A DNA stretch of 64,000 nucleotides, from the sequence record MN508356.1, one strand, 5' to 3'. The notes beneath the pieces are model-generated. The model was not told the DNA's origin. It saw only the letters and a program-made list of their open reading frames with translations, and ran no database searches. Below, in pieces: positions 3,386 to 64,000 of this stretch; the stretch's first letter is position 1; the number at the start of each line of letters is the position of its first letter. Origin of the DNA: Acinetobacter phage VB_ApiP_XC38. The translations under genes were made by a program, and so were the position numbers.

Positions 3386-4138
3386 ATGTTCCTACAAGAT
3401 GTATACGATGCGCTATGCGCTGCAGAGTTCCAACTATCATCCATTGGTGATACTGGTGAAATTAAACCAGAGAAGAGAGCTTTAGTTAATACTATTATCC
3501 AATCTGGTATTACTGATATTAATAAGTACTTCACTCTTAAAGAGGGTGAGCTATTACTTCGTACGAAGAATGGTAAGAACAAGTACGAGTTAGTGCCGGA
3601 GAATGCTGTATCTACTGGTAATCAGTTTGGGTTTATTATTGATAGTGTAGATGATCCTTTTATTGGGGATATTCTGCAGATTACTCAGATACATGACTCA
3701 AAAGGTAAGTCTCTTTGGCTGAATGCTGACACTACTCATCGTGTTGATACTGATGATATCTTTGGGTATCACCCAGGATTAGTACAGAAGAGTGGTATCA
3801 ATATGGTGAATTATAATACCCTTAAGTTCCCTGAAGGCCATGAAGCTGATGATTACTTGGTGAAGTATAAGGCCAAGCTTAAACCAGTAGAAAGAAACTC
3901 AGATCCTACTACTACATTCTTGGAATTACCTGATGTTTACTTAGGTGCATTGTGTAACTACGTTGCGTCACGTTTCTTCAACCCTAAGGGTGCAGAGACT
4001 ATTGGTCGTGGTATGTTCCATGGTGGTAATAACTACTGGACTAAGTATAAAGAGGACATTGAAACTCTACGTGCTAACATGGCAAGTATTAGTTCATTAG
4101 GTGAAACTACCAAGTTTGAAACTGGTGGATGGGTATAA
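3386..4138 (+). CDS. hypothetical protein (packaging/structural module)
   Basis: 250-aa ORF 4 nt after terL, same operon. Followed by a terminator. Confidence 0.4.
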   Translation: MFLQDVYDALCAAEFQLSSIGDTGEIKPEKRALVNTIIQSGITDINKYFTLKEGELLLRTKNGKNKYELVPENAVSTGNQFGFIIDSVDDPFIGDILQITQIHDSKGKSLWLNADTTHRVDTDDIFGYHPGLVQKSGINMVNYNTLKFPEGHEADDYLVKYKAKLKPVERNSDPTTTFLELPDVYLGALCNYVASRFFNPKGAETIGRGMFHGGNNYWTKYKEDIETLRANMASISSLGETTKFETGGWV

Positions 4139-4286: not shown

Positions 4287-6491
4287 ATGGAAATTAATTT
4301 AAACCAACCTGTTCAGGTTCAGGGTAAGTTAACGAACTGGAAAAATGAACCAGATATTCGTGATCTTAAACAGGATCTGACAGAAGCAACTAGCTACTAC
4401 TCTACCCAAACCGGGAAGATTGAACGCTGGCTAAACGTGCTTCACATGGAAGGTAGTGCTAAACCAGTTACAGCTGATGGTAAGAGTAAGGTTGCTCCTA
4501 AGCTTGTGCGTACACAAGCAGAGTGGCGTTATTCAGCCTTGTCAGAAGTATTCTTGTCTAGTACTGACTTGTTTAATGTGAATCCTGTTACATGGGAAGA
4601 CGTTAAGGCAGCAGAACAGAATGAGCTAATTCTGAATAATCAGTTTGATACTAAGATTGATAAGGTTGCTTTCATCGATAAGATGATTCGTACTTGTGTC
4701 AATGAAGGTACTGCTATTCTCCGTACTGGATGGAACCACAAAGTAGAGAAGGTTACTCAAGAAGTACCTAACTTTATGATGTATGAAGATCCTTCTTTTA
4801 TGCCTGAATTACAGCAGCATCTACAGATGATGCAACAGCAACCAGATTATTTAGAAGATCAACCTGAAGAAATCAAATTAGCTGTAGAGCAATCACAAAT
4901 TCAAGGTGTACCTATTCGTGTATTCAAACAAGGTACTCGAATGGAGACTACTGAGAAGGTAATTGCAAACCACCCAACAGTAGAAGTAGTAGACTTCACT
5001 TCAATCTATGTTGACCCTACTTGCCAAGGCGATTTAAGTAGGGCCAATTTCATTATTCATAAGTTCGAGACTTCTATGTCTGACCTAAAGAGAGATGGTC
5101 GATATAAGAACCTTGATAAAATTGTTGTTCAGAATGCAACAGTAACATCCGATATAGGAAGCCAATATGACTCATCAAACCCACCAGGTTCATTCACCTT
5201 CAAAGATGAAGCGCGTAAAAAAATGTATGCATACGAGTACTGGGGATATTACGATTTTGACGATTCTGGCATTGCTCGCCCTATGGTATGCACTTGGGTT
5301 GGTGACACGATAATCCGATTAGAAGAGAACCCTTATCCTGATAAGCAGTTCCCTTTTGTATTCATTCCATTCATGCCTGTTAAGGGATCTTTGTATGGCG
5401 AACCTGATGCTGAGTTACTGGAAGATAACCAGAAGATTAAAGGTGCTGTAACACGAGGCATCATTGATCTGTTAGCTAAGACTTCTGCAGGTCAGACTGG
5501 ATTCATGAAAGGAGCTATGGATTCTGTAAACATGCATAAGTTCCGTACTGGTCAAGACTTCGAGTTCAATCCTGGACAACACCCACAGTATGCCATTCAA
5601 ACTCAGACCTTTGCTGATATTCCAGAGTCTGCTCCATTTATGTTGCAGATGGTGAATACGGATTCTGAATCATTGACTGGTGTGCGTGCCTTTGCAGGAA
5701 CAGGTGTTACTGGTGTTAACTTAGGACAAACAGCAGAAGCTGTACGTACTGCTACAGATGCAGCAACCAAACGTGAGATTGGTATTGTTCGTAGACTTGG
5801 TAATGGTATGGTTCAAGTAGCACGTAAGTTCTTAACCATGAATGCTATGTTCTTGGAAGAGGAAGAAGTAGTACGTGTTACTAATGACAACTTTGTTCCT
5901 GTTAAACGTGATGACTTAGCAGGTAACTTTGATCTACGTATTAATATCTCTACTCCAGAGGAAGACGTAAGTAGATCTCAACAGCTTAGCTTTATGATGC
6001 AAACTCTAGGTAATAACTTACCTCCTGAATTGCCTATTAAGATTATGGCTAAGATTGCTAAGTTGCATAAGATGCCTGATCTAGCTAACTACTTGGATAA
6101 CTGGCAACCTCAGCCTGATCCAATGCAAGAAGCTCTTAAACAACTTGAGATTGCTAAGATCCAAGCAGAAACTGCATTGCTTAATGCTCAAGCTCGTGAA
6201 GCAGATGCTAAGTCATTTGTACAAGGTGCTAAGGTTGGTGTTGAACAAGCTCGTGCAGGTCAGATGCAAAGTCAGACTGACAAGAACAACTTGGACTTCT
6301 ACAACAAAGCCAATGGCATTGATCATGCAAATGCTAAAGACTTGCAACAACAGAAGTTGGATACTGATATTGTTAAGGATACCCTTAAGAATCAGAACAA
6401 CCTTGACTTGGCTAACAAGCAACATAACACTGCTTTGTTGTTAGAGCATGCTAAGGCAAGTTTGCAACCAAAAGAAAAATCTGTATCATAG
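4287..6491 (+). CDS. portal protein (N4 gp59-like by size and position)
   Basis: 734-aa ORF just downstream of terL. Q/N/K-rich coiled-coil C-terminal tail. Gene order terminase>portal>scaffold>capsid. Confidence 0.6.
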   Translation: MEINLNQPVQVQGKLTNWKNEPDIRDLKQDLTEATSYYSTQTGKIERWLNVLHMEGSAKPVTADGKSKVAPKLVRTQAEWRYSALSEVFLSSTDLFNVNPVTWEDVKAAEQNELILNNQFDTKIDKVAFIDKMIRTCVNEGTAILRTGWNHKVEKVTQEVPNFMMYEDPSFMPELQQHLQMMQQQPDYLEDQPEEIKLAVEQSQIQGVPIRVFKQGTRMETTEKVIANHPTVEVVDFTSIYVDPTCQGDLSRANFIIHKFETSMSDLKRDGRYKNLDKIVVQNATVTSDIGSQYDSSNPPGSFTFKDEARKKMYAYEYWGYYDFDDSGIARPMVCTWVGDTIIRLEENPYPDKQFPFVFIPFMPVKGSLYGEPDAELLEDNQKIKGAVTRGIIDLLAKTSAGQTGFMKGAMDSVNMHKFRTGQDFEFNPGQHPQYAIQTQTFADIPESAPFMLQMVNTDSESLTGVRAFAGTGVTGVNLGQTAEAVRTATDAATKREIGIVRRLGNGMVQVARKFLTMNAMFLEEEEVVRVTNDNFVPVKRDDLAGNFDLRINISTPEEDVSRSQQLSFMMQTLGNNLPPELPIKIMAKIAKLHKMPDLANYLDNWQPQPDPMQEALKQLEIAKIQAETALLNAQAREADAKSFVQGAKVGVEQARAGQMQSQTDKNNLDFYNKANGIDHANAKDLQQQKLDTDIVKDTLKNQNNLDLANKQHNTALLLEHAKASLQPKEKSVS

Positions 6492-8112: not shown

Positions 8113-9282
8113 ATGGCACATTTTTATAATGATCCTACAGGTGGTAACCCATCTACAGTTGGTACTCAATTACGCGACTTCTACTATGCTCGTGATGCAA
8201 TCACAGAAGTAGCAAAAGAACAGTACTTCTCTCAACTTGCTTCTGTTACAGATATGCCTAAGCATTATGGTAAGCGTATTAAACGTTATATCTATGTGCC
8301 TTTACTTGATGACCGTAACAAAAACGATCAGGGTATTGACGCTACTGGTGTTGCGATTAAAGACGGTAACCTTTACGGCTCTAGTAAAGACGTAGGCTTT
8401 ATTGCAGGCAAGATGCCAGTATTATCTGAAACAGGTGGTCGTGTTAACCGTGTAGGTTTCGTACGTAAAACTCTTGAAGGTACGTTCCAGAACTACGGTT
8501 ACTTCATGGAATACTCAGAAGACTCATTGAACTTCGATACAGATGAACAGTTGATGCAACACATTAACCGCGAAATGTTGAAAGGTGCAAACGAAATCTC
8601 TGAAGCTCTTATCCAGTTAGACTTGCTTAACAACGCAGGCGTTACTAAATATGCAGGTGTTGCTACTTCAGCTGCTGAAATTGGTAAAGACAGTATCGTT
8701 ACTTTTGAAGACCTTGTTAACCTCGTTACTGACCTGGACAACAACCGTACTCCAAAAGATACGAAGATCATCTCTGGTTCTACAAATATCGATACTAAAA
8801 CCATTAACGCTGCTCGCTTAATGTATATCGGTTCTGAACTTAAGAACACTCTTCGTAAACAAACAGACTTCTTCAATAACCCTGCATTTGTTGGTGTTCA
8901 ACACTACGCTGCTGCAACCAAACCTCTTCGTGGTGAAATTGGTTCTATCGATGAGTTCCGTATCATCGTAGTTCCTGAAATGATGAAGTGGGCAGGTGCT
9001 GGTCAAGCTGCAACTACTGGTGATGGCGTACACGTTACTGACGGTAAAGTAGACGTATTCCCAATGTTGGTTGTTGGTTCTGAATCATTCACTACTATCG
9101 GCTTCCAATCAGATGCCAAGTCTGTGAAGTTCAAGATCATCCACAAAAAGCCTGGGCCTGAGATGGCTACTCCTGCAGATCCATACGGTAAGATGGGCTT
9201 TATGTCTATTCAATGGTGGTATGGCTTCATGGTAATCCGTCCAGAGCGTATTGCCTTGATCAAAACTGCTGCATTAATCTAA
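8113..9282 (+). CDS. major capsid protein (by position, size and flanking strong terminator)
   Basis: 389-aa ORF after scaffold-like gene with AGGAAA RBS. Immediately followed by a strong terminator. Size matches N4-type MCP (~400 aa). Confidence 0.6.
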   Translation: MAHFYNDPTGGNPSTVGTQLRDFYYARDAITEVAKEQYFSQLASVTDMPKHYGKRIKRYIYVPLLDDRNKNDQGIDATGVAIKDGNLYGSSKDVGFIAGKMPVLSETGGRVNRVGFVRKTLEGTFQNYGYFMEYSEDSLNFDTDEQLMQHINREMLKGANEISEALIQLDLLNNAGVTKYAGVATSAAEIGKDSIVTFEDLVNLVTDLDNNRTPKDTKIISGSTNIDTKTINAARLMYIGSELKNTLRKQTDFFNNPAFVGVQHYAAATKPLRGEIGSIDEFRIIVVPEMMKWAGAGQAATTGDGVHVTDGKVDVFPMLVVGSESFTTIGFQSDAKSVKFKIIHKKPGPEMATPADPYGKMGFMSIQWWYGFMVIRPERIALIKTAALI

Positions 9283-9291
9283 TATCACTAA

Positions 9292-9319
9292 AGGGGAGCT
9301 AAGCCTCCCCTTTATTTTC
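9292..9319 (+). terminator. rho-independent terminator after capsid gene
   Basis: Hairpin 'aggggag-ctaagc-ctcccct' followed by TTATTTT. Confidence 0.7.
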
Positions 9320-9345
9320 AGCTTAATATTCGTAAAGGAAATCCC

Positions 9346-9936
9346 ATGTCAGATGTTCAACAAACTCAAAACACTCTTAGTGAAGAACAGCAAGTTCAAG
9401 CAATTGCATCTCTTAAGAAACAAGCAGATCGCTTGGGTGTTACATATAAATCAAACGTATCAGTGGCAACATTGCAAAAAGCTATTCAAGCTAAGCTTGA
9501 TGGCGAACCAGACGAAAGTGAGGGTAATACAGAAGTGGATACTAAATCGAAACGCCAATCAGAAGCAGAACAGCTTGAAGCTCTCCACGACAAGGCTATG
9601 AAGCTTGTACGTGTAATCGTTACACCTATGGAAGCGACTAAAGCAGCTAACCTTGAATCAGAAATCTTCTGTGCAGGTAACTCTAAACTAGGTACAGTTA
9701 AACGCTTAGTAGTATTTGGTGAACCATGGCACGTAGAGCAAATCCTTCTTAACTCTATTAAAGAGAAGAAGTACCAAATGTTTACAACTAAGAAGAATGC
9801 TCGTGGTATCGAGATTACTTCTGCAAAATTAGTCCCTGCTTATGCGATTAACGTTCTTCCTGACTTAACAGAAGAAGAATTAAAAGAGCTTGCAGATCAC
9901 CAAGTTCGTACACGCTCATTAGCTGACGAAGATTAA
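9346..9936 (+). CDS. hypothetical virion-module protein
   Basis: 196-aa ORF with AGGAAA RBS. The overlapping 82-aa alternate-frame ORF 9353..9601 is judged spurious. Confidence 0.45.
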   Translation: MSDVQQTQNTLSEEQQVQAIASLKKQADRLGVTYKSNVSVATLQKAIQAKLDGEPDESEGNTEVDTKSKRQSEAEQLEALHDKAMKLVRVIVTPMEATKAANLESEIFCAGNSKLGTVKRLVVFGEPWHVEQILLNSIKEKKYQMFTTKKNARGIEITSAKLVPAYAINVLPDLTEEELKELADHQVRTRSLADED

Positions 9937-9947
9937 GGATAAACATC

Positions 9948-11390
9948 ATGGCTAGTACTAACATTGATTTAACATTAGCTCAGTTAGATAACTTAGATAT
10001 TAAGGAACTAACTACAGCTACTATTGGTGGTACTGGTGTATTTGATGTCTTGATGAAAACCACTGCCTTACATATCCGTGCTGAATATGATGCTAACCGG
10101 ATTACAGGCCCTGAGTATTCACAAGTTTATCTGGGTGGCCTACAAGCCACCCTTGCTACTTCTGTACAGTACTTAAACGAAGCTAAGCTTCTAGGTATTC
10201 GTATCAAGAATGAAGAAAAGCAAGGTGAGTTAATTGCTGCTCAAACCAAACTTGCCGAAGCACAAGCGAATCAAGTTAAGTTAGAGACTGAGCTTAAGCT
10301 TCCTGTAGAAGTAGCCAACATCGAAGCATCAACTGCATTATCTGCCGCTAATAAGGAACAGGTTGTAACTACAACTACCACTATGCTTCCAGCACAGGTA
10401 GCAAACGTACAAGCAACAACCTTACTTACTGACACTAACCGTGATCGTGTTAAAGAAGAGATTACTCTCATCCCTAAACAAGGTGAGATGCTTACAGCAC
10501 AGATAGGTCAAACAGCTAAGCAGACTGAGTTAGTAAATGTACAGATTGATCAGTTAACTCAAGAGCTTGCTAAGATCCCTGTAGAAGTACAGATCTTAGA
10601 GAAACAGCTTGAAGGTCAAATGGCTCAGATTAGTCTTACTAATGCACAAACTGAAGGTGTTGAACTTAGTAATACTAAGATCCCTAAAGAAATTGTTTTA
10701 CTTGAGAAGCAGTCACTACAGGCAGATTCAGCTATTGCATTAACTACCGCTCAGAAAGATCAAATCACTGCAGAGACTACTACTCGTTTGCCAGTAGAAG
10801 TAGCTAACTTGACTAAGCAAGGTGAGAACTTAGCTAAGCAAGTATTAATGACAGACGCTCAAACCAATCAAGTAATTGAACAAACTAAGCGCTTCCCTTA
10901 TGACATTGAAGAGATTCAAGCTCGTATTACTAGCATGACCAAGCAAACACTCAGTACTGAAAAAGATATTGAATTGAAGCAAGGTCAGTTAGAACTTCAA
11001 GAGAAACAGTTACTCTTATCTCAAGCAGAACTTGAAGTTAAGAAACAGGAACTTGAAGTACAGCGTGCTGCTATTGATTCTCAGAAGGCTCAAGCAGAGT
11101 TATATGGTCAAAAGGTTAAGACAGAGAAAGCTCAGACTGAAGGTTCTGTTGCACAACCAGGTTCTGTACTTGGTGCTAACGTAGCAGTTCTTATGGCTCA
11201 GGCTGATGGTTATACTTCTGATAAGCTACAGAAAGCTACTAAGATCTTAGTTGATACTTGGAATGCTAGACGTAGTACAGATGACGGTACTGAAGCTAAC
11301 GTCACTAACCAATTGCATGATGCCAACATTGGTGTTGTAGTAAAAGGTTTAATGACTGATGCAGGCTTACAGCCAAACATCTCAGGCTAA
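9948..11390 (+). CDS. repeat-rich coiled-coil structural protein
   Basis: About 7 copies of a ~33-aa repeat with core [KR][LI]P[VK][EQ][VI] (KLPVEVANIEA, MLPAQVANVQA, KIPVEVQILEK, KIPKEIVLLEK, RLPVEVANLTK...). Nucleotide repeat 'cctgtagaagtagc' recurs. Q/T/E-rich. Confidence 0.5.
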   Translation: MASTNIDLTLAQLDNLDIKELTTATIGGTGVFDVLMKTTALHIRAEYDANRITGPEYSQVYLGGLQATLATSVQYLNEAKLLGIRIKNEEKQGELIAAQTKLAEAQANQVKLETELKLPVEVANIEASTALSAANKEQVVTTTTTMLPAQVANVQATTLLTDTNRDRVKEEITLIPKQGEMLTAQIGQTAKQTELVNVQIDQLTQELAKIPVEVQILEKQLEGQMAQISLTNAQTEGVELSNTKIPKEIVLLEKQSLQADSAIALTTAQKDQITAETTTRLPVEVANLTKQGENLAKQVLMTDAQTNQVIEQTKRFPYDIEEIQARITSMTKQTLSTEKDIELKQGQLELQEKQLLLSQAELEVKKQELEVQRAAIDSQKAQAELYGQKVKTEKAQTEGSVAQPGSVLGANVAVLMAQADGYTSDKLQKATKILVDTWNARRSTDDGTEANVTNQLHDANIGVVVKGLMTDAGLQPNISG

Positions 11391-30857: not shown

Positions 30858-33008
30858 CTACTTACTTTTACTTTGAATTGATTTCAAGATGGTTTGCTGT
30901 AACTCGTCTTCCGACAACTTATCAACAAGTTTGTTATTGAGTGATTTAACACGATCACCAATCTCAACGAAGTTTAGACCACTTTCGTAAAGCACCATTG
31001 CATAGTTATACAACTGCTTATTACGGTTACCGTCACCAGTGTTGTTAATCATCCAACGTTCAAGATTGTCTAATTGTCCTTGGTCTTTGAAACGAGCTTC
31101 ACGCTCTTCACTCTTAGACGTACGAGGGATGTATGGAAGTACATCAAACAATTGACCATCGTTAATCCATACTTCATCAGACTCAGCAGTAAGCCATTTC
31201 TTATTACGTTGATTGCAAGACTCATCCATTTCAAATGGTAGGTCTTTCATAACAGCATTCATAAATTGCTTATATTCTTCTTTGTCTAATTTCAGAATGT
31301 AATTAGTTGGAATGATTACACGATAGCGATCTAAACCATCAGCATCTTGATGACGCTTGGTTGTATAGAATACCGCTTTGTAATCCTTCAATAGTTCTTT
31401 GGCTGTGGCTAATGGAAGTGTTCCATCAACGTCAAGCACAATCATATTGAATCCAGGGATTGTAGATTCATCACGGCGTAAGCCATTATCGAAATGATGG
31501 TTTGCCCAATGAAGATCTTTGACCTTACCGAAGTTAGCCAGTTTATCGAACTGGGTCAGCTTAGGCTCGTACCCTTCAGCAAGCTTATTACTTACTGACA
31601 TGATTAGTTCATCCAAGTTTGTTTGCTTGAGTGATTCACCACGCAAGAACAAAATGGAGCCATCATAAGACTTCTTGATGATTACGTTGTTACGGTATCC
31701 CCAAGCTGTAGCATATTCAATTAACTGATCTTTCTGTGGTTTAGAACCACGGAAGCAAGGTAATGCTTGCTCAAGGTCAGGTAATGTAATGCCTGTTTCA
31801 CAATCCGCTAAATACTTAGCTACCTTTTCATAATCGTACTCAGGTTTCATTAGACGGGCAAAGTGTTCACCAGAATCTTCTGTTAAACGCATTGCTGCTT
31901 CAAGATGAGCAATTGTGATGTTTGGTGAGTAATCACGGAATGCGTAAGCACCTGCTAATTTAAGTACCTTAAAGAAGCGGTTAACTAATTCTGAATGCAG
32001 AATAGTCTCATGCTCTTTGAGTTCCTCAGCTCGTTTATCACAGCTGATTTTGTACTCCATTAGGTAGATAGCTTCTGCCTGCTCGATACGAATGATCTTG
32101 TTCAAGTTAGAGATGTCAGCTAGTTGTTCTAATGAACAAGACAGCGCATCCAACTGAGCATCGTTACTGCTATTGAACATCTGGTTTACGAGAGTTGCTG
32201 CATCATCTGTAACGACCTTACGGACTTTTGGAATATATCCAAACAGACAGCGGCGAGCATATCCCATCTCCAACATTTCAACTAAGTGCTTCTGAGTTAA
32301 ACCAGAATCAAGAAGTTTAGATGGAGTACCAAACAACAACATGTTTGTAGGCGTGTTGCCTTCAATACGTTCGTATCGTGTAGTCTCCGCAGATGACTTC
32401 ACCAATTTATCCTTGATCGTACCTGTATCGTACAATTCTAAGAATGCGTTAGTTACTTCAGTCTGCCCAACCAGGTTAGCTCCAATTTCATCAATCTGTA
32501 GATTGACTCCACCTGCTTTAGCTAAGTTGAGTTTATGACGTAACTGTTTAACTGCAGGAACAGTAGCAGAGTCAAATGAGAACAGTAGAGCACCAATTGA
32601 GTTGAACTCTTTTAATAAGCCTTCGTACTCATCAGTAGGTTGTGTTCCTTTTCGGATCGCACGACTGTGTGCAATCTTATTCATGTTCTGTTCTGCAGCT
32701 AATGGGAATGTATTTTCCATGAACGAATCACGGAAGCGATTAATGACACTATTCTCAATCAGACCAGTAGAGTAGCCCTTACCAGTACCTGAAGGAGATA
32801 AGTTCATTGCATAGATATTAATTGGAAGAGTTGATCCTCCCCAACCTTGAATACCTGCATGCATCTGAGAAGCCAGTACTCCCCAGTAGTAAGAACTAGC
32901 TATACGAAAGAACATACGTTCTGAGTTCTGAGTCTTAGCACACATGATGTCTGTAAGCATCTCAGTAACCGGATCGTAAGCCATGTCTTCAAAATTTTTA
33001 AGTTGCAT
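30858..33008 (-). CDS. DNA primase-like replication protein (N4 gp43-like)
   Basis: 716 aa. P-loop-like 'LSPSGTGKGYS'. TOPRIM-like DxD segment 'NMIVLDVDGTLPLATAKELLKD'. Sits between nuclease and ATPase genes in the replication module. Confidence 0.45.
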   Translation of the reverse strand: MQLKNFEDMAYDPVTEMLTDIMCAKTQNSERMFFRIASSYYWGVLASQMHAGIQGWGGSTLPINIYAMNLSPSGTGKGYSTGLIENSVINRFRDSFMENTFPLAAEQNMNKIAHSRAIRKGTQPTDEYEGLLKEFNSIGALLFSFDSATVPAVKQLRHKLNLAKAGGVNLQIDEIGANLVGQTEVTNAFLELYDTGTIKDKLVKSSAETTRYERIEGNTPTNMLLFGTPSKLLDSGLTQKHLVEMLEMGYARRCLFGYIPKVRKVVTDDAATLVNQMFNSSNDAQLDALSCSLEQLADISNLNKIIRIEQAEAIYLMEYKISCDKRAEELKEHETILHSELVNRFFKVLKLAGAYAFRDYSPNITIAHLEAAMRLTEDSGEHFARLMKPEYDYEKVAKYLADCETGITLPDLEQALPCFRGSKPQKDQLIEYATAWGYRNNVIIKKSYDGSILFLRGESLKQTNLDELIMSVSNKLAEGYEPKLTQFDKLANFGKVKDLHWANHHFDNGLRRDESTIPGFNMIVLDVDGTLPLATAKELLKDYKAVFYTTKRHQDADGLDRYRVIIPTNYILKLDKEEYKQFMNAVMKDLPFEMDESCNQRNKKWLTAESDEVWINDGQLFDVLPYIPRTSKSEEREARFKDQGQLDNLERWMINNTGDGNRNKQLYNYAMVLYESGLNFVEIGDRVKSLNNKLVDKLSEDELQQTILKSIQSKSK

Positions 33009-34615: not shown

Positions 34616-34662
34616 TACTTCTCCTTTGAGAGCACACGACCACCCGAAGGGTGGCCTGTAGA

Positions 34663-62358: not shown

Positions 62359-62611
62359 CGAAGTTCTGCAACTTCTTCAAAGTGTTAAGACCTTGAGCTT
62401 CCAAGAAGTTGATCATTGATTCGTGAGTAGGTGACATGTGGCCTTTTAATTTAACTAAGCCTTCGTCTGCCAATGCACGGCGAATTGTGATCTCTGCTAC
62501 GTTAAAACGTAATGCTAACTCACGTTGAGTCATACGTTCTTTTTTAGGTAGCTTCCATTCAGCAACAACAAGTTTGATTTCAGCAGGTGTAAGAGATTTT
62601 TTAACTTTCAT
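62324..62611 (-). CDS. small helix-turn-helix DNA-binding protein (putative early transcription regulator)
   Basis: 'MTQRELALRFNVAEITIRRALADEG' is a classic HTH. 95 aa, AGGAA RBS. Confidence 0.55.
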   Translation of the reverse strand: MKVKKSLTPAEIKLVVAEWKLPKKERMTQRELALRFNVAEITIRRALADEGLVKLKGHMSPTHESMINFLEAQGLNTLKKLQNFVVKARKGSNAK

Positions 62612-62714
62612 GGTTTCATTCCTATGAGAATTGATTTAGGTAAGTTGCCTTACCTAAAGCAACTTTGTTTATCGCAGTTGGAGAACCCAACCACAAAGGG
62701 GCACGTAGTGCCCA

Positions 62715-63050
62715 TTAATCTAAATTAATAATAGTACAGTCTGAGATCTTAACTAAGGATCTACTCCATATACCAAGACCCATCTGTTCTGAGTCTCCTA
62801 ATTCTGGGATAGCCTTCGTATAGTTACCTAACTCAAATACTTGAAGACCTGCAACACCATCATCATGACTACGTAGAGGTGAGTGCCAGTACAAGTTGTC
62901 TTTTTTAGGCTCTGTATAGTAAGCCTATACAGTACCGTCTACATCCATTGCTATGTATCCATTTTCTAAGAACTCTGTAGGTACACTTATAGCTATACCT
63001 AAGTAGTTAATTACAGTTACCTTGGCTGCCCAAGCTACGAATAGTGACAT
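62715..63050 (-). pseudogene. gene with strong start interrupted by a single in-frame TAG after codon 41 (amber mutant, readthrough gene or sequencing error)
   Basis: AGGAG RBS plus ATG at 63050. 41 codons, then TAG (62925-62927), then 69 further in-frame sense codons with no internal start until Met ~48. The TAG sits in the hairpin 62912-62932. Confidence 0.45.
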
Positions 63051-63061
63051 GATTACTCCTA

Positions 63062-63104
63062 AATAAAAAAAGCCCTATATACCAACGGAGAGATATATAG
63101 GGCT
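63062..63104 (-). terminator. − strand rho-independent terminator (11-bp stem)
   Basis: + strand: AAAAAAAAA 'agccctatata-ccaacggagaga-tatatagggct'. On the − strand the hairpin is followed by the T-run. Confidence 0.6.
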
Positions 63105-63716
63105 ATAAATGGAGAGCATGCTCTCCGGGGGAAACTGGGTGATCCGTATCGACACAGTGGATCATTCTGCCTTTAAGTACGAGCACTCGTCTGACTTGTT
63201 ACACGCTCTATTACATGGCCAACGAAAATAAACCAGTAAGGAAGATCGTACCCGGAGGTATGACTGTATGGATACAGTCGGGTATATGCCACAAGCTAGG
63301 GCCATGAATCACATTCACTAAAGAACGTGTTACCCCTAGAGCCGGGGTCGGGCTATATTGCTCTCATTGGTGATGTGAATACCAGAGATTGCGAGTCTCT
63401 GTAAGTTTTAAGCCGAAGTCTATAACTCTCGTACTCTATGGGATTAACTGTATTAAAGCCCTTATTCAGTGTGTGTATTTCCAAAGTCTGACAGGCTGTG
63501 TCAAAGTCTTCCATACACGGTTCTGGTTCGCATATTCACATCCCAATGAGAACTTAACACGGATGTACTCTAGCACCAGGCTGAAGCATTGATCCATGTG
63601 ATTCTCATTGACCTATTTAAACCATAGGTGGTTGCATGAGCAAGGGAAGTGAGTATCTAGAATCTCTTACCATATCCGCAAACAGCGTACAGGGGCTGCA
63701 GACCTCCTGTTACTGA

Positions 63717-63998
63717 TCATCCTCTTGGCTTGCTCAATTCTTTAATGCCTTCATTGTAGGCATCCTTAATGATAGCTGCAAGGTATTCCTCACGAGCTTC
63801 TTTAGGTACTAATTTGATTGCTTCAAACACATCCTGTGGGATGGTTATAGCACGTTTAAAGTGCATGTTGTTTCTGCTCTCAGCATAGAACTCTACAATA
63901 GTTCCATCTGAAAGAGCTAATACAGATATCATGGTATATCTAGGAGTGCCTAAGTGATTGTACGTAGTGAAATAGAACTTATCTATATCTATAGACAA
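63717..63998 (-). CDS. hypothetical protein (may be truncated by window end)
   Basis: 93-aa ORF at the right edge. Confidence 0.35.
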   Translation of the reverse strand: MSIDIDKFYFTTYNHLGTPRYTMISVLALSDGTIVEFYAESRNNMHFKRAITIPQDVFEAIKLVPKEAREEYLAAIIKDAYNEGIKELSKPRG

Positions 63999-64000
63999 CT

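Follow-up and report, generated by a model that had tools for sequence, protein, structure and literature searches.

A gene-free interval of Acinetobacter phage VB_ApiP_XC38 as the probable gene for a large, modular non-coding RNA with palindromic loops

The window analysed here is a stretch of 64,000 nt from Acinetobacter phage VB_ApiP_XC38 (sequence record MN508356.1), whose minus strand carries genes of an N4-like (Schitoviridae) phage for a MoxR-type ATPase, a vWA/DUF2201 protein, a helicase and a DNA polymerase. Between a small open reading frame (ORF) at 63717–63998 and a gene at 62715–63050 lies a gene-free stretch, and the question is what this interval (63062–63716) encodes. Its longest ORF would give 67 aa (63389–63592, plus strand) and all others 53 aa or less, and its GC content is 0.43–0.48, as compared with 0.36–0.41 in the flanks (200-nt windows). 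An earlier interpretation made from the letters alone (the sequence-only reading) had noted the lack of longer ORFs, the local GC enrichment, several palindromes and a minus-strand terminator at 63104–63062, and had proposed a small RNA of ~190 nt ending there. The first three observations were confirmed, every palindrome being where it had been placed, and the terminator was recovered by a terminator scan. A non-coding minus-strand RNA with this 3' end is likewise supported, the palindromes being RNA helices, while the length and the start of the RNA had to be revised. In our assessment, the interval is probably the gene for a large, modular and highly structured minus-strand non-coding RNA, which would be stable, act in trans and self-associate.

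At the equivalent position, homologues are found in 15 further N4-like phages or contigs (phages nACB1 and At2, sewage and other metagenomes). In a blastn search of 62600–64000 against 50,697 phage records, the sole match was Acinetobacter phage nACB1, where it falls in an unannotated 750-nt gap between genes that are too diverged to be seen by blastn. Acinetobacter phage At2, the nearest relative as judged by the ATPase (66% identity), carries a copy that is more diverged, within a syntenic gap of 1 kb. The 13 further copies, in metagenome contigs and without exception at this position on the gene strand, were reached via the neighbouring ATPase, which was searched against a large protein collection, and 12 contig sets were fetched (loci are given below by L numbers). 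The family as counted here comprises 16 carriers of a 5' module, termed A, including the window; two more contigs have only a 3' module, termed B. No ORF is conserved in the corresponding regions of nACB1 or At2 and the substitutions are pairwise compensatory, on which grounds a coding region or pseudogene was rejected.

Upstream, conservation starts abruptly at the AAAGAAUUAAACC motif, which reads AAAGAAUUAAACCAAKGCC in relatives. As this motif pairs with a segment ~90 nt downstream to form helix P1, the RNA should span ~63743–63062, and it overlaps the last nine codons of the ORF at 63717–63998. The matches obtained in the window with nhmmer and covariance models (CMs) extend from 63758/63746 to 63057. 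A length of ~190 nt is contradicted both by the conservation and the covarying helices, which cover the whole of this span, and by the long-range pairing of 63736–63729 with 63644–63637 that closes the 5' domain. At the level of sequence, the comparison shows the extent of the RNA, its closure by P1, an architecture of modules A, C (central) and B, and the gain and loss of modules among relatives. From 5' to 3' its features are:

63062–63743, minus strand: whole structured RNA, ~680 nt; the 5' limit is the start of family-wide conservation (AAAGAAUU...), the 3' limit the U-run of the terminator
63729–63736, minus strand: 5' strand of P1, UGAGCAAG, pairing with 63637–63644; AUUAAACCAAKG in most relatives
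63689–63710, minus strand: hairpin H0, stem ACAGG/CCUGU, 5/5 stem pairs changed on both sides
63644–63671, minus strand: hairpin P2, GGUAAG...CUUCCC
63637–63644, minus strand: 3' strand of P1, CUUGCUCA; CAUUGGUUUAAU in relatives
63611–63630, minus strand: conserved hairpin H3, CACCUAUGG...AAAUAGGU
63603–63610, 63543–63553 and 63363–63373, minus strand: alternative-pairing segments
63532–63553, minus strand: 5' strand of the long helix b'/c, 21–22 bp
63383–63531, minus strand: optional central module C in the tip of b'/c, including the palindromic hairpin cagaga-ttgcgag-tctctg (63383–63401)
63360–63382, minus strand: 3' strand of helix b'/c
63305–63359, minus strand: lineage-specific inserted hairpins between modules A and B
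63121–63304, minus strand: module B (3' domain), a three-way junction with invariant AUCUUCCUU / AAUAGAG and conserved GUAAY, then a pseudoknot
63262–63279, minus strand: helix P3c of module B, the palindrome gactgta-tgga-tacagtc, 5/5 pairs changed on both sides
63140–63170, minus strand: H-type pseudoknot, including the palindrome gatcc-N13-ggatc (63141–63163)
63111–63126, minus strand: optional hairpin GGAGAG-CAUG-CUCUCC ahead of the terminator, the palindrome ggagagcatgctctcc
63062–63104, minus strand: intrinsic terminator, with a 13-bp stem (63104–63071), a C-rich loop and a U-run (TTTTTTATTT)

The assignment is carried by covariation. In alignments made with MAFFT only, 43 of 135 predicted pairs were compensatory among three sequences over the whole RNA, 17 of 28 in the 3' domain with a larger set, and seven of 20 in the 5' P1 domain. 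For two CMs, R1 for the 3' domain and R2 for the P1 domain, the sequences were realigned to each model and pairs were then counted. With R1, 89.3% were paired, as compared with 68.9% on shuffling and 35–44% on sliding, and 25 of 36 pairs were changed on both sides; the corresponding values with R2 were 92.2%, 78.7% and 32–52%, with 12 of 22 pairs changed on both sides. On no measure were the values observed with R1 and R2 reached in any of 500 shuffles. In the paired columns, G-U cells outnumber A-C cells by 100 to 27, and a G-U pair at one position is unchanged in 15/15 sequences; hence the RNA is the minus strand. The calculated folding energy of that strand is –219.6 kcal/mol (z = –3.4), which was equalled by none of 20 shuffles, the plus strand folding more weakly (–202.1 kcal/mol, z = –1.8).

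In module A, P1 encloses H0 and P2, and further hairpins follow after a variable insert: H3, one that is variable, and the long b'/c hairpin. Across the 16 sequences P1 shows 98% pairing, with 5/11 pairs changed on both sides. Among relatives CCAAGG/CCUUGG alternates with CCAAUG/CAUUGG, and in the window and nACB1 the sequence of P1 is largely or wholly replaced on both strands, as read from the alignment. Helix b'/c, with 15 of 21 predicted pairs compensatory in a MAFFT-only alignment of 15 sequences, persists where a short loop takes the place of the central module. The segment termed b (CAAUGAGA, 63603–63610, minus strand) is complementary to both the 3' strand of P1 and b' (UCUCAUUG). It changes in step with b', G occurring with C in 5/5 sequences and A with U in 6/7. 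These mutually exclusive pairings may represent a folding intermediate or a switch.

Two loops of module A bear on whether the RNA associates with itself. When the whole alignment was scanned for 6-nt Watson–Crick palindromes common to the family, exactly two positions emerged, the loops of H0 and P2. The H0 loop is CUGCAG (63696–63701) in all 16 family members, though the stem below it covaries. The P2 loop, UCUAGA in the window (63656–63661), varies in sequence: seven palindromes were found (UCUAGA, UACGUA, UAGCUA, UUGCAA, UGGCCA, UGCGCA and ACUAGU), and nACB1 has UCGCGG, which is self-complementary with G-U. The palindrome stands 4 nt after the GGUAAG-type 5' strand in 14/16 and 3 nt after it in L025; by chance, a palindrome would occur at this offset in 2.2% of loops. 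A self-complementary apical hexamer kept through sequence change, as expected for a kissing loop, is found in the P2 loop of 15/16. Because the P2 palindrome covaries at two central adjacent positions, which are unpairable in one loop, the pairing is most simply read as one between two copies of the RNA. We infer from these sequences that RNA copies would self-associate via kissing loops CUGCAG (H0) and UCUAGA (P2).

In the whole window, TCTGCAG occurs 32 times, as compared with 12.7 expected from shuffles, and a palindromic hairpin with a 7-bp stem and a CTGCAG loop lies at ~32545–32566. Hairpins with a CUGCAG loop elsewhere are weak and heterogeneous.

The remaining modules differ in their distribution. 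Module C is present in 12/16 and absent in L015, L019, L027 and L032, where a short loop caps b'/c. Inserts at the position of 63305–63359 are found in the window, L014, L015 and L018; those of L019 and L031 are shorter and unrelated, and nACB1, At2 and others have none. Module B of the window scores 154 bits with R1. In its pseudoknot, stem 1 (GCAG 63170–63167 with CUGU 63157–63154) is 96.7% paired with 3/4 pairs changed on both sides, and stem 2 (UGAUCC 63164–63159 with GGAUCA 63145–63140) retains complementarity in 15/15 via at least eight different sequence pairs. At the position of the hairpin 63111–63126, a hairpin of different sequence is present in L014, L015, nACB1, L026, L029 and L019, and none in the others. 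The combinations are A+C+B in 11, A+B in two, A+C in one and A alone in two, module B being missing in L021, L027 and L032. Module B alone was found with R1 in two more distant phages, the N4-like contigs L030 (38 bits) and L013 (35 bits), which lack module A and have the same type of terminator.

This distribution raises the possibility that the interval yields not one RNA but two or three small ones (A, alone or with C; B), which would be co-transcribed, cut apart and each work alone. The occurrence of A without B in three loci and of B without A in two is as expected from such an arrangement, and so are the lineage-specific inserts between the two modules. Against it, wherever both modules occur, A precedes B and one terminator closes the pair, neither terminator nor promoter lies between them, and no processing signal is recognisable. 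Separate RNAs are in our view unlikely; they would be compatible with most of what is proposed here for a single modular RNA, and the two explanations differ only in the final molecule.

Smaller elements were also observed in different contexts. A sub-module (…CGGUAUCGYAAUCCG…ACGA…) forms the variable insert after P1 in L014 (~2560–2625) and L032 (~3790–3850) and lies inside the central module instead in L031 (~3670–3720), and a second sub-module (GGGUGAUCUUCGGAUCUAAAUAG) is common to L016, L023, L025 and L032. Thus, mini-modules seem to move between positions.

How the single modular RNA would be transcribed is indicated by its surroundings. Of the 15 relatives, 11 carry tRNA genes on the same strand no more than 1 kb upstream, the gap being only 5 nt in L015, and this linkage hints at a role connected with tRNA or translation. 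N4 uses DNA hairpins as promoters. Those of its virion RNA polymerase have a short GC-rich stem of 5–7 bp, a 3-nt loop and conserved flanks, and recur at transcription starts. The N4-type promoter-like elements of the present clade consist of a perfect GC-rich stem of 6 bp and a loop of TTC or TAC, with conserved TTGNNTGGTT (also given as TTGNNTGGTTGGGTTCTC) or TGTTGTGCTTT downstream (examples are L014 1862, L016 2178 and L001 5566–5580). They stand ~57 nt before the first tRNA of the islands and also before a conserved gene for a 95-aa helix-turn-helix (HTH) protein. In nACB1, the tRNAs are followed by a terminator-like hairpin and then by a hairpin of the promoter-like kind (GCATCCttcGGATGC), with the RNA directly behind it. 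On the minus strand of the window, only 62699–62713 and ~34640–34653 fit the pattern, neither of them inside the RNA; the nearest, 62699–62713, is downstream of it. There is no sigma-70-like site within the RNA. The RNA would be made as the last element of a leftward unit, started at an N4-type hairpin promoter and carrying a tRNA island or a small ORF ahead of the RNA. In nACB1, where the promoter hairpin directly precedes it, the RNA would be a unit of its own, and the promoter for the copy in the window is probably situated past base 64000, ahead of the ORF 63717–63998.

In At2 (L002), two tRNA genes detected with Rfam at 3861–3930 and 3938–4009 (44 and 38 bits, respectively) lie just upstream of the RNA; both are absent from the annotation of the At2 record and from the ARAGORN calls.

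At the other end, the ribosome-binding site and ATG of the next gene come directly after the terminator, within ~10–25 nt in every locus. This arrangement would also suit a very long cis-acting leader or attenuator, sensing a tRNA, a metabolite or a protein and setting termination at 63104–63062 against read-through into middle genes; the adjoining tRNA genes and the mutually exclusive pairings of module A (segment b with a' or b') are consistent with it as well. However, three kinds of gene follow the terminator: members of a ~100-aa family in most loci, a gene for a 60-aa membrane protein in five and, in L026, the HTH gene. Since the gene differs among loci, a gene-specific leader is disfavoured. 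In addition, a separate promoter-like hairpin (62699–62713) precedes the next conserved gene block, the RNA of nACB1 has a promoter-like hairpin of its own, and the terminator is long (12–13 bp) and strong in all variants. No covarying complement of the terminator 5' strand was seen on reading the alignments, a dedicated antiterminator search not having been made, and there was no Rfam match to a T-box or riboswitch. An attenuator is less likely than the modular RNA and on the whole improbable. Pfam and PHROGs gave no function for the flanking small proteins.

The C-rich loop of the terminator (CCCCAA-like) is kept in every variant, including the RNAs that consist of module B only. This loop, at 63083–63092 in the window, shows complementarity to a conserved element in module A, UGMGG (UGCGGA, 63675–63680, in the window), with a central mismatch that becomes a C-G pair in the window and an A-U pair in nACB1. 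The pairing may be a tertiary contact that closes the ends of the RNA. The candidate tertiary partners of UGMGG are the terminator loop CCCCAA, the H0 loop and ACCUCC of module B.

The start of the ~190-nt RNA had been placed by the sequence-only reading at the TGGA-loop hairpin 63262–63279, taken as a promoter. This hairpin is the internal helix P3c. Every relative has a different sequence here but retains the pairing, which is the behaviour of a structural helix rather than a promoter. With a 7-bp stem, a 4-nt loop and no conserved sequence, it departs from the N4-type promoter rule and lacks the conserved features of the clade's promoter-like elements. Furthermore, it sits between helices P3b and P3d, and transcription from it would halve the conserved helices P3a and P3b. 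Both the hairpin and the terminator do exist, and module B alone (~160–190 nt plus terminator) is free-standing in the two distant phages; nevertheless, an RNA reaching from this hairpin to the terminator is very improbable.

An equally slight chance is given to a DNA-level element (an origin or an early-promoter cluster, the alternative offered from the sequence alone), a self-splicing intron or a known ribozyme, which are largely refuted: dense inverted repeats and the precedent of the N4 hairpin promoters would suit the first, but the helices join segments 90–190 nt apart, G-U exceeds A-C in the paired columns and the 5' motif is no more frequent in the genome than expected (31 matches vs 30.6), and for the others no intron, RNase P or other Rfam family was found at E ≤ 10 and no tmRNA by ARAGORN. 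There is no split gene at the region, because the flanks differ among relatives, the upstream neighbour being tRNA genes in some and a small ORF in others. Group I and II introns were rejected on this ground and because the RNA ends in a terminator and has no Rfam intron match; RNase P RNA and tmRNA were rejected from the absence of an Rfam match and of an ARAGORN tmRNA.

The modular RNA was compared with catalogued families using Rfam 15, at the gathering threshold on the 64-kb window, at E ≤ 10 on 62600–64000, at E ≤ 5 on nACB1 and At2 and at E ≤ 0.1 on six more loci. This comparison, which the sequence-only reading had named as a check, yielded no match for the interval, and the window and its eight relatives gave only tRNAs and noise around terminators. 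Neither the GOLLD nor the ROOL model matched in the window, nACB1, At2 or the six more loci. No description of the RNA was found in the literature, and the nACB1 genome paper mentions only four tRNAs. The RNA is a separate family that matches no catalogued Rfam 15 family and is like GOLLD and ROOL in kind.

GOLLD and ROOL are RNA-only homo-oligomers held by kissing loops and A-minor contacts, and intermolecular kissing-loop bridges occur in ROOL, GOLLD and OLE (10.1101/2024.12.08.627333). Short oligomeric RNA motifs with compact RNA–RNA interfaces are exemplified by manA and EGFOA (10.64898/2026.07.01.735769). Like ROOL and GOLLD, the present RNA is several hundred nt long, densely structured, with pseudoknots, phage-encoded and often adjacent to tRNA islands, and, as in GOLLD, one part is universally conserved and another variable. 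Proximity to a tRNA island of the GOLLD type is found in 11/15 relatives and not in the window. In contrast to ROOL and GOLLD, which are mainly from Firmicutes prophages and marine samples, its hosts are lytic N4-like (Schitoviridae) Acinetobacter phages, whole modules are present or absent and module B is able to stand alone. Compared with the ROOL and GOLLD assemblies, oligomerisation is here suggested by the self-complementary loop hexamers.

Other systems show partial similarity. The dimerisation initiation site (DIS) of HIV-1 has natural palindrome variants GCGCGC and GUGCAC. The P2 loop resembles it in being a hairpin loop of ~9–11 nt with a 6-nt self-complementary sequence and flanking purines, the palindrome being kept through sequence change. 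Unlike the DIS, it belongs to a non-coding RNA of a DNA phage and not to a packaged genome, the presence of two palindromic loops would allow more than a dimer, and the evidence comes from comparison of sequences. Phage T4 species 1 and 2 are stable non-tRNA RNAs of ~140 nt, encoded and co-transcribed with a tRNA cluster. The present RNA is similarly a non-tRNA RNA encoded with phage tRNAs but is unrelated in sequence, longer (~300–790 nt) and modular. The phi29 pRNA multimerises via loops that are complementary to each other and acts on the packaging motor, whereas the loops described here are self-complementary and no link to packaging genes was seen.

Taken together, the transcript would be a stable RNA that acts in trans and associates with itself through two kissing loops, and two self-complementary loops per molecule could lead to dimers, rings or larger assemblies, as in GOLLD and ROOL. 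More speculatively, and with only tentative confidence, the RNA may represent a class of self-assembling phage RNA not described before. It would be produced together with the phage tRNAs, as an early or middle transcript in N4-like Acinetobacter phages, with kissing loops building rings, filaments or cages and plug-in modules carrying the activity. In such assemblies, CUGCAG would be the universal loop and the P2 loop a phage-specific one, whose seven variants would separate the RNAs of co-infecting relatives, and modules C and B and the small inserts would decorate the core and provide the activity, e.g. binding of tRNAs, ribosomes or a host defence factor.

Several points weigh against a stable, trans-acting and self-associating RNA. 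The 5' end, the stability and the presence of A and B in one molecule are all inferred, and the case for self-association is made from the palindromic loops. The CUGCAG of H0 is invariant, i.e. shows no covariation, and could instead be a site of contact with a protein or a tertiary contact. The alternative pairings of segment b could indicate a switch rather than a static scaffold. No tRNA or tmRNA was found by ARAGORN in the 64-kb window. CM alignments are biased towards the modelled structure, although the MAFFT-only results agree with them. Finally, the family is small (16 members and the two with module B only) and comes from one phage clade, so that some of the covariation is phylogenetically linked.

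Large structured RNAs without known function are rare, and cryo-EM showed the phage-associated GOLLD and ROOL to be RNA-only cages. The present RNA would be a further, unrelated family with the same genomic habit, in phages and beside tRNA genes. It is present in the cultivable lytic phages nACB1 and At2 of a tractable genus, in which knock-outs and infection transcriptomics are feasible, and the covarying palindromic loop offers a precise and cheap handle on self-association of the RNA. The natural module deletions are ready-made minimal constructs of ~300 nt for structure work. In annotation, the 'empty' stretch of ~0.6–1 kb in such phage genomes deserves the label of an RNA gene.

Beyond the loci described, CM searches of the regions syntenic to the RNA locus in Vibrio phage pVa5, Acinetobacter phage Ab2712, Pseudoalteromonas phage pYD6-A and Salmonella phage FSL SP-058 detected neither module. 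In the first 30 kb of E. coli phage N4 no module B was found by CM, module A not having been searched there. IMG/VR scanned with exact and degenerate DNA patterns gave no matches. A pattern scan of metagenomes gave nine loci, a number consistent with chance expectation; they have no blastn similarity beyond the pattern and weak nhmmer similarity confined to the pattern region, and were rejected. Two loci from a pattern scan of genome contigs were attributed to chance (14 bits or nothing). L009 and L004 have weak CM scores (27 and 19 bits, respectively) and were not counted as members, since they had been selected by the pattern itself. The 27-bit match with the module B model in L009 (5060–5193, minus strand), a metagenome contig found by the AUCUUCCUU…AAUAGAG..GUAAC pattern, covers the first half of the module only, with the three-way junction and no pseudoknot. 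This locus may be a distant relative or a pattern-biased chance match.

Two observations concern neighbouring genes. The gene at 62715–63050 (minus strand), directly after the terminator, has an in-frame amber codon TAG at 62925–62927. Its homologues (100–118 aa, PHROG 1972) are uninterrupted and have residues of Trp/Tyr type near the amber position; no suppressor tRNA is encoded in the 64-kb window. In Pseudoalteromonas phage pYD6-A (L034), the neighbouring ATPase gene (8989–10874) is split by an inserted ORF and annotated as two joined pieces, and in L014/L015 HNH endonuclease genes (4458–4997) lie immediately upstream of the ATPase gene. The site adjoining the RNA locus looks like a homing-endonuclease hot spot.

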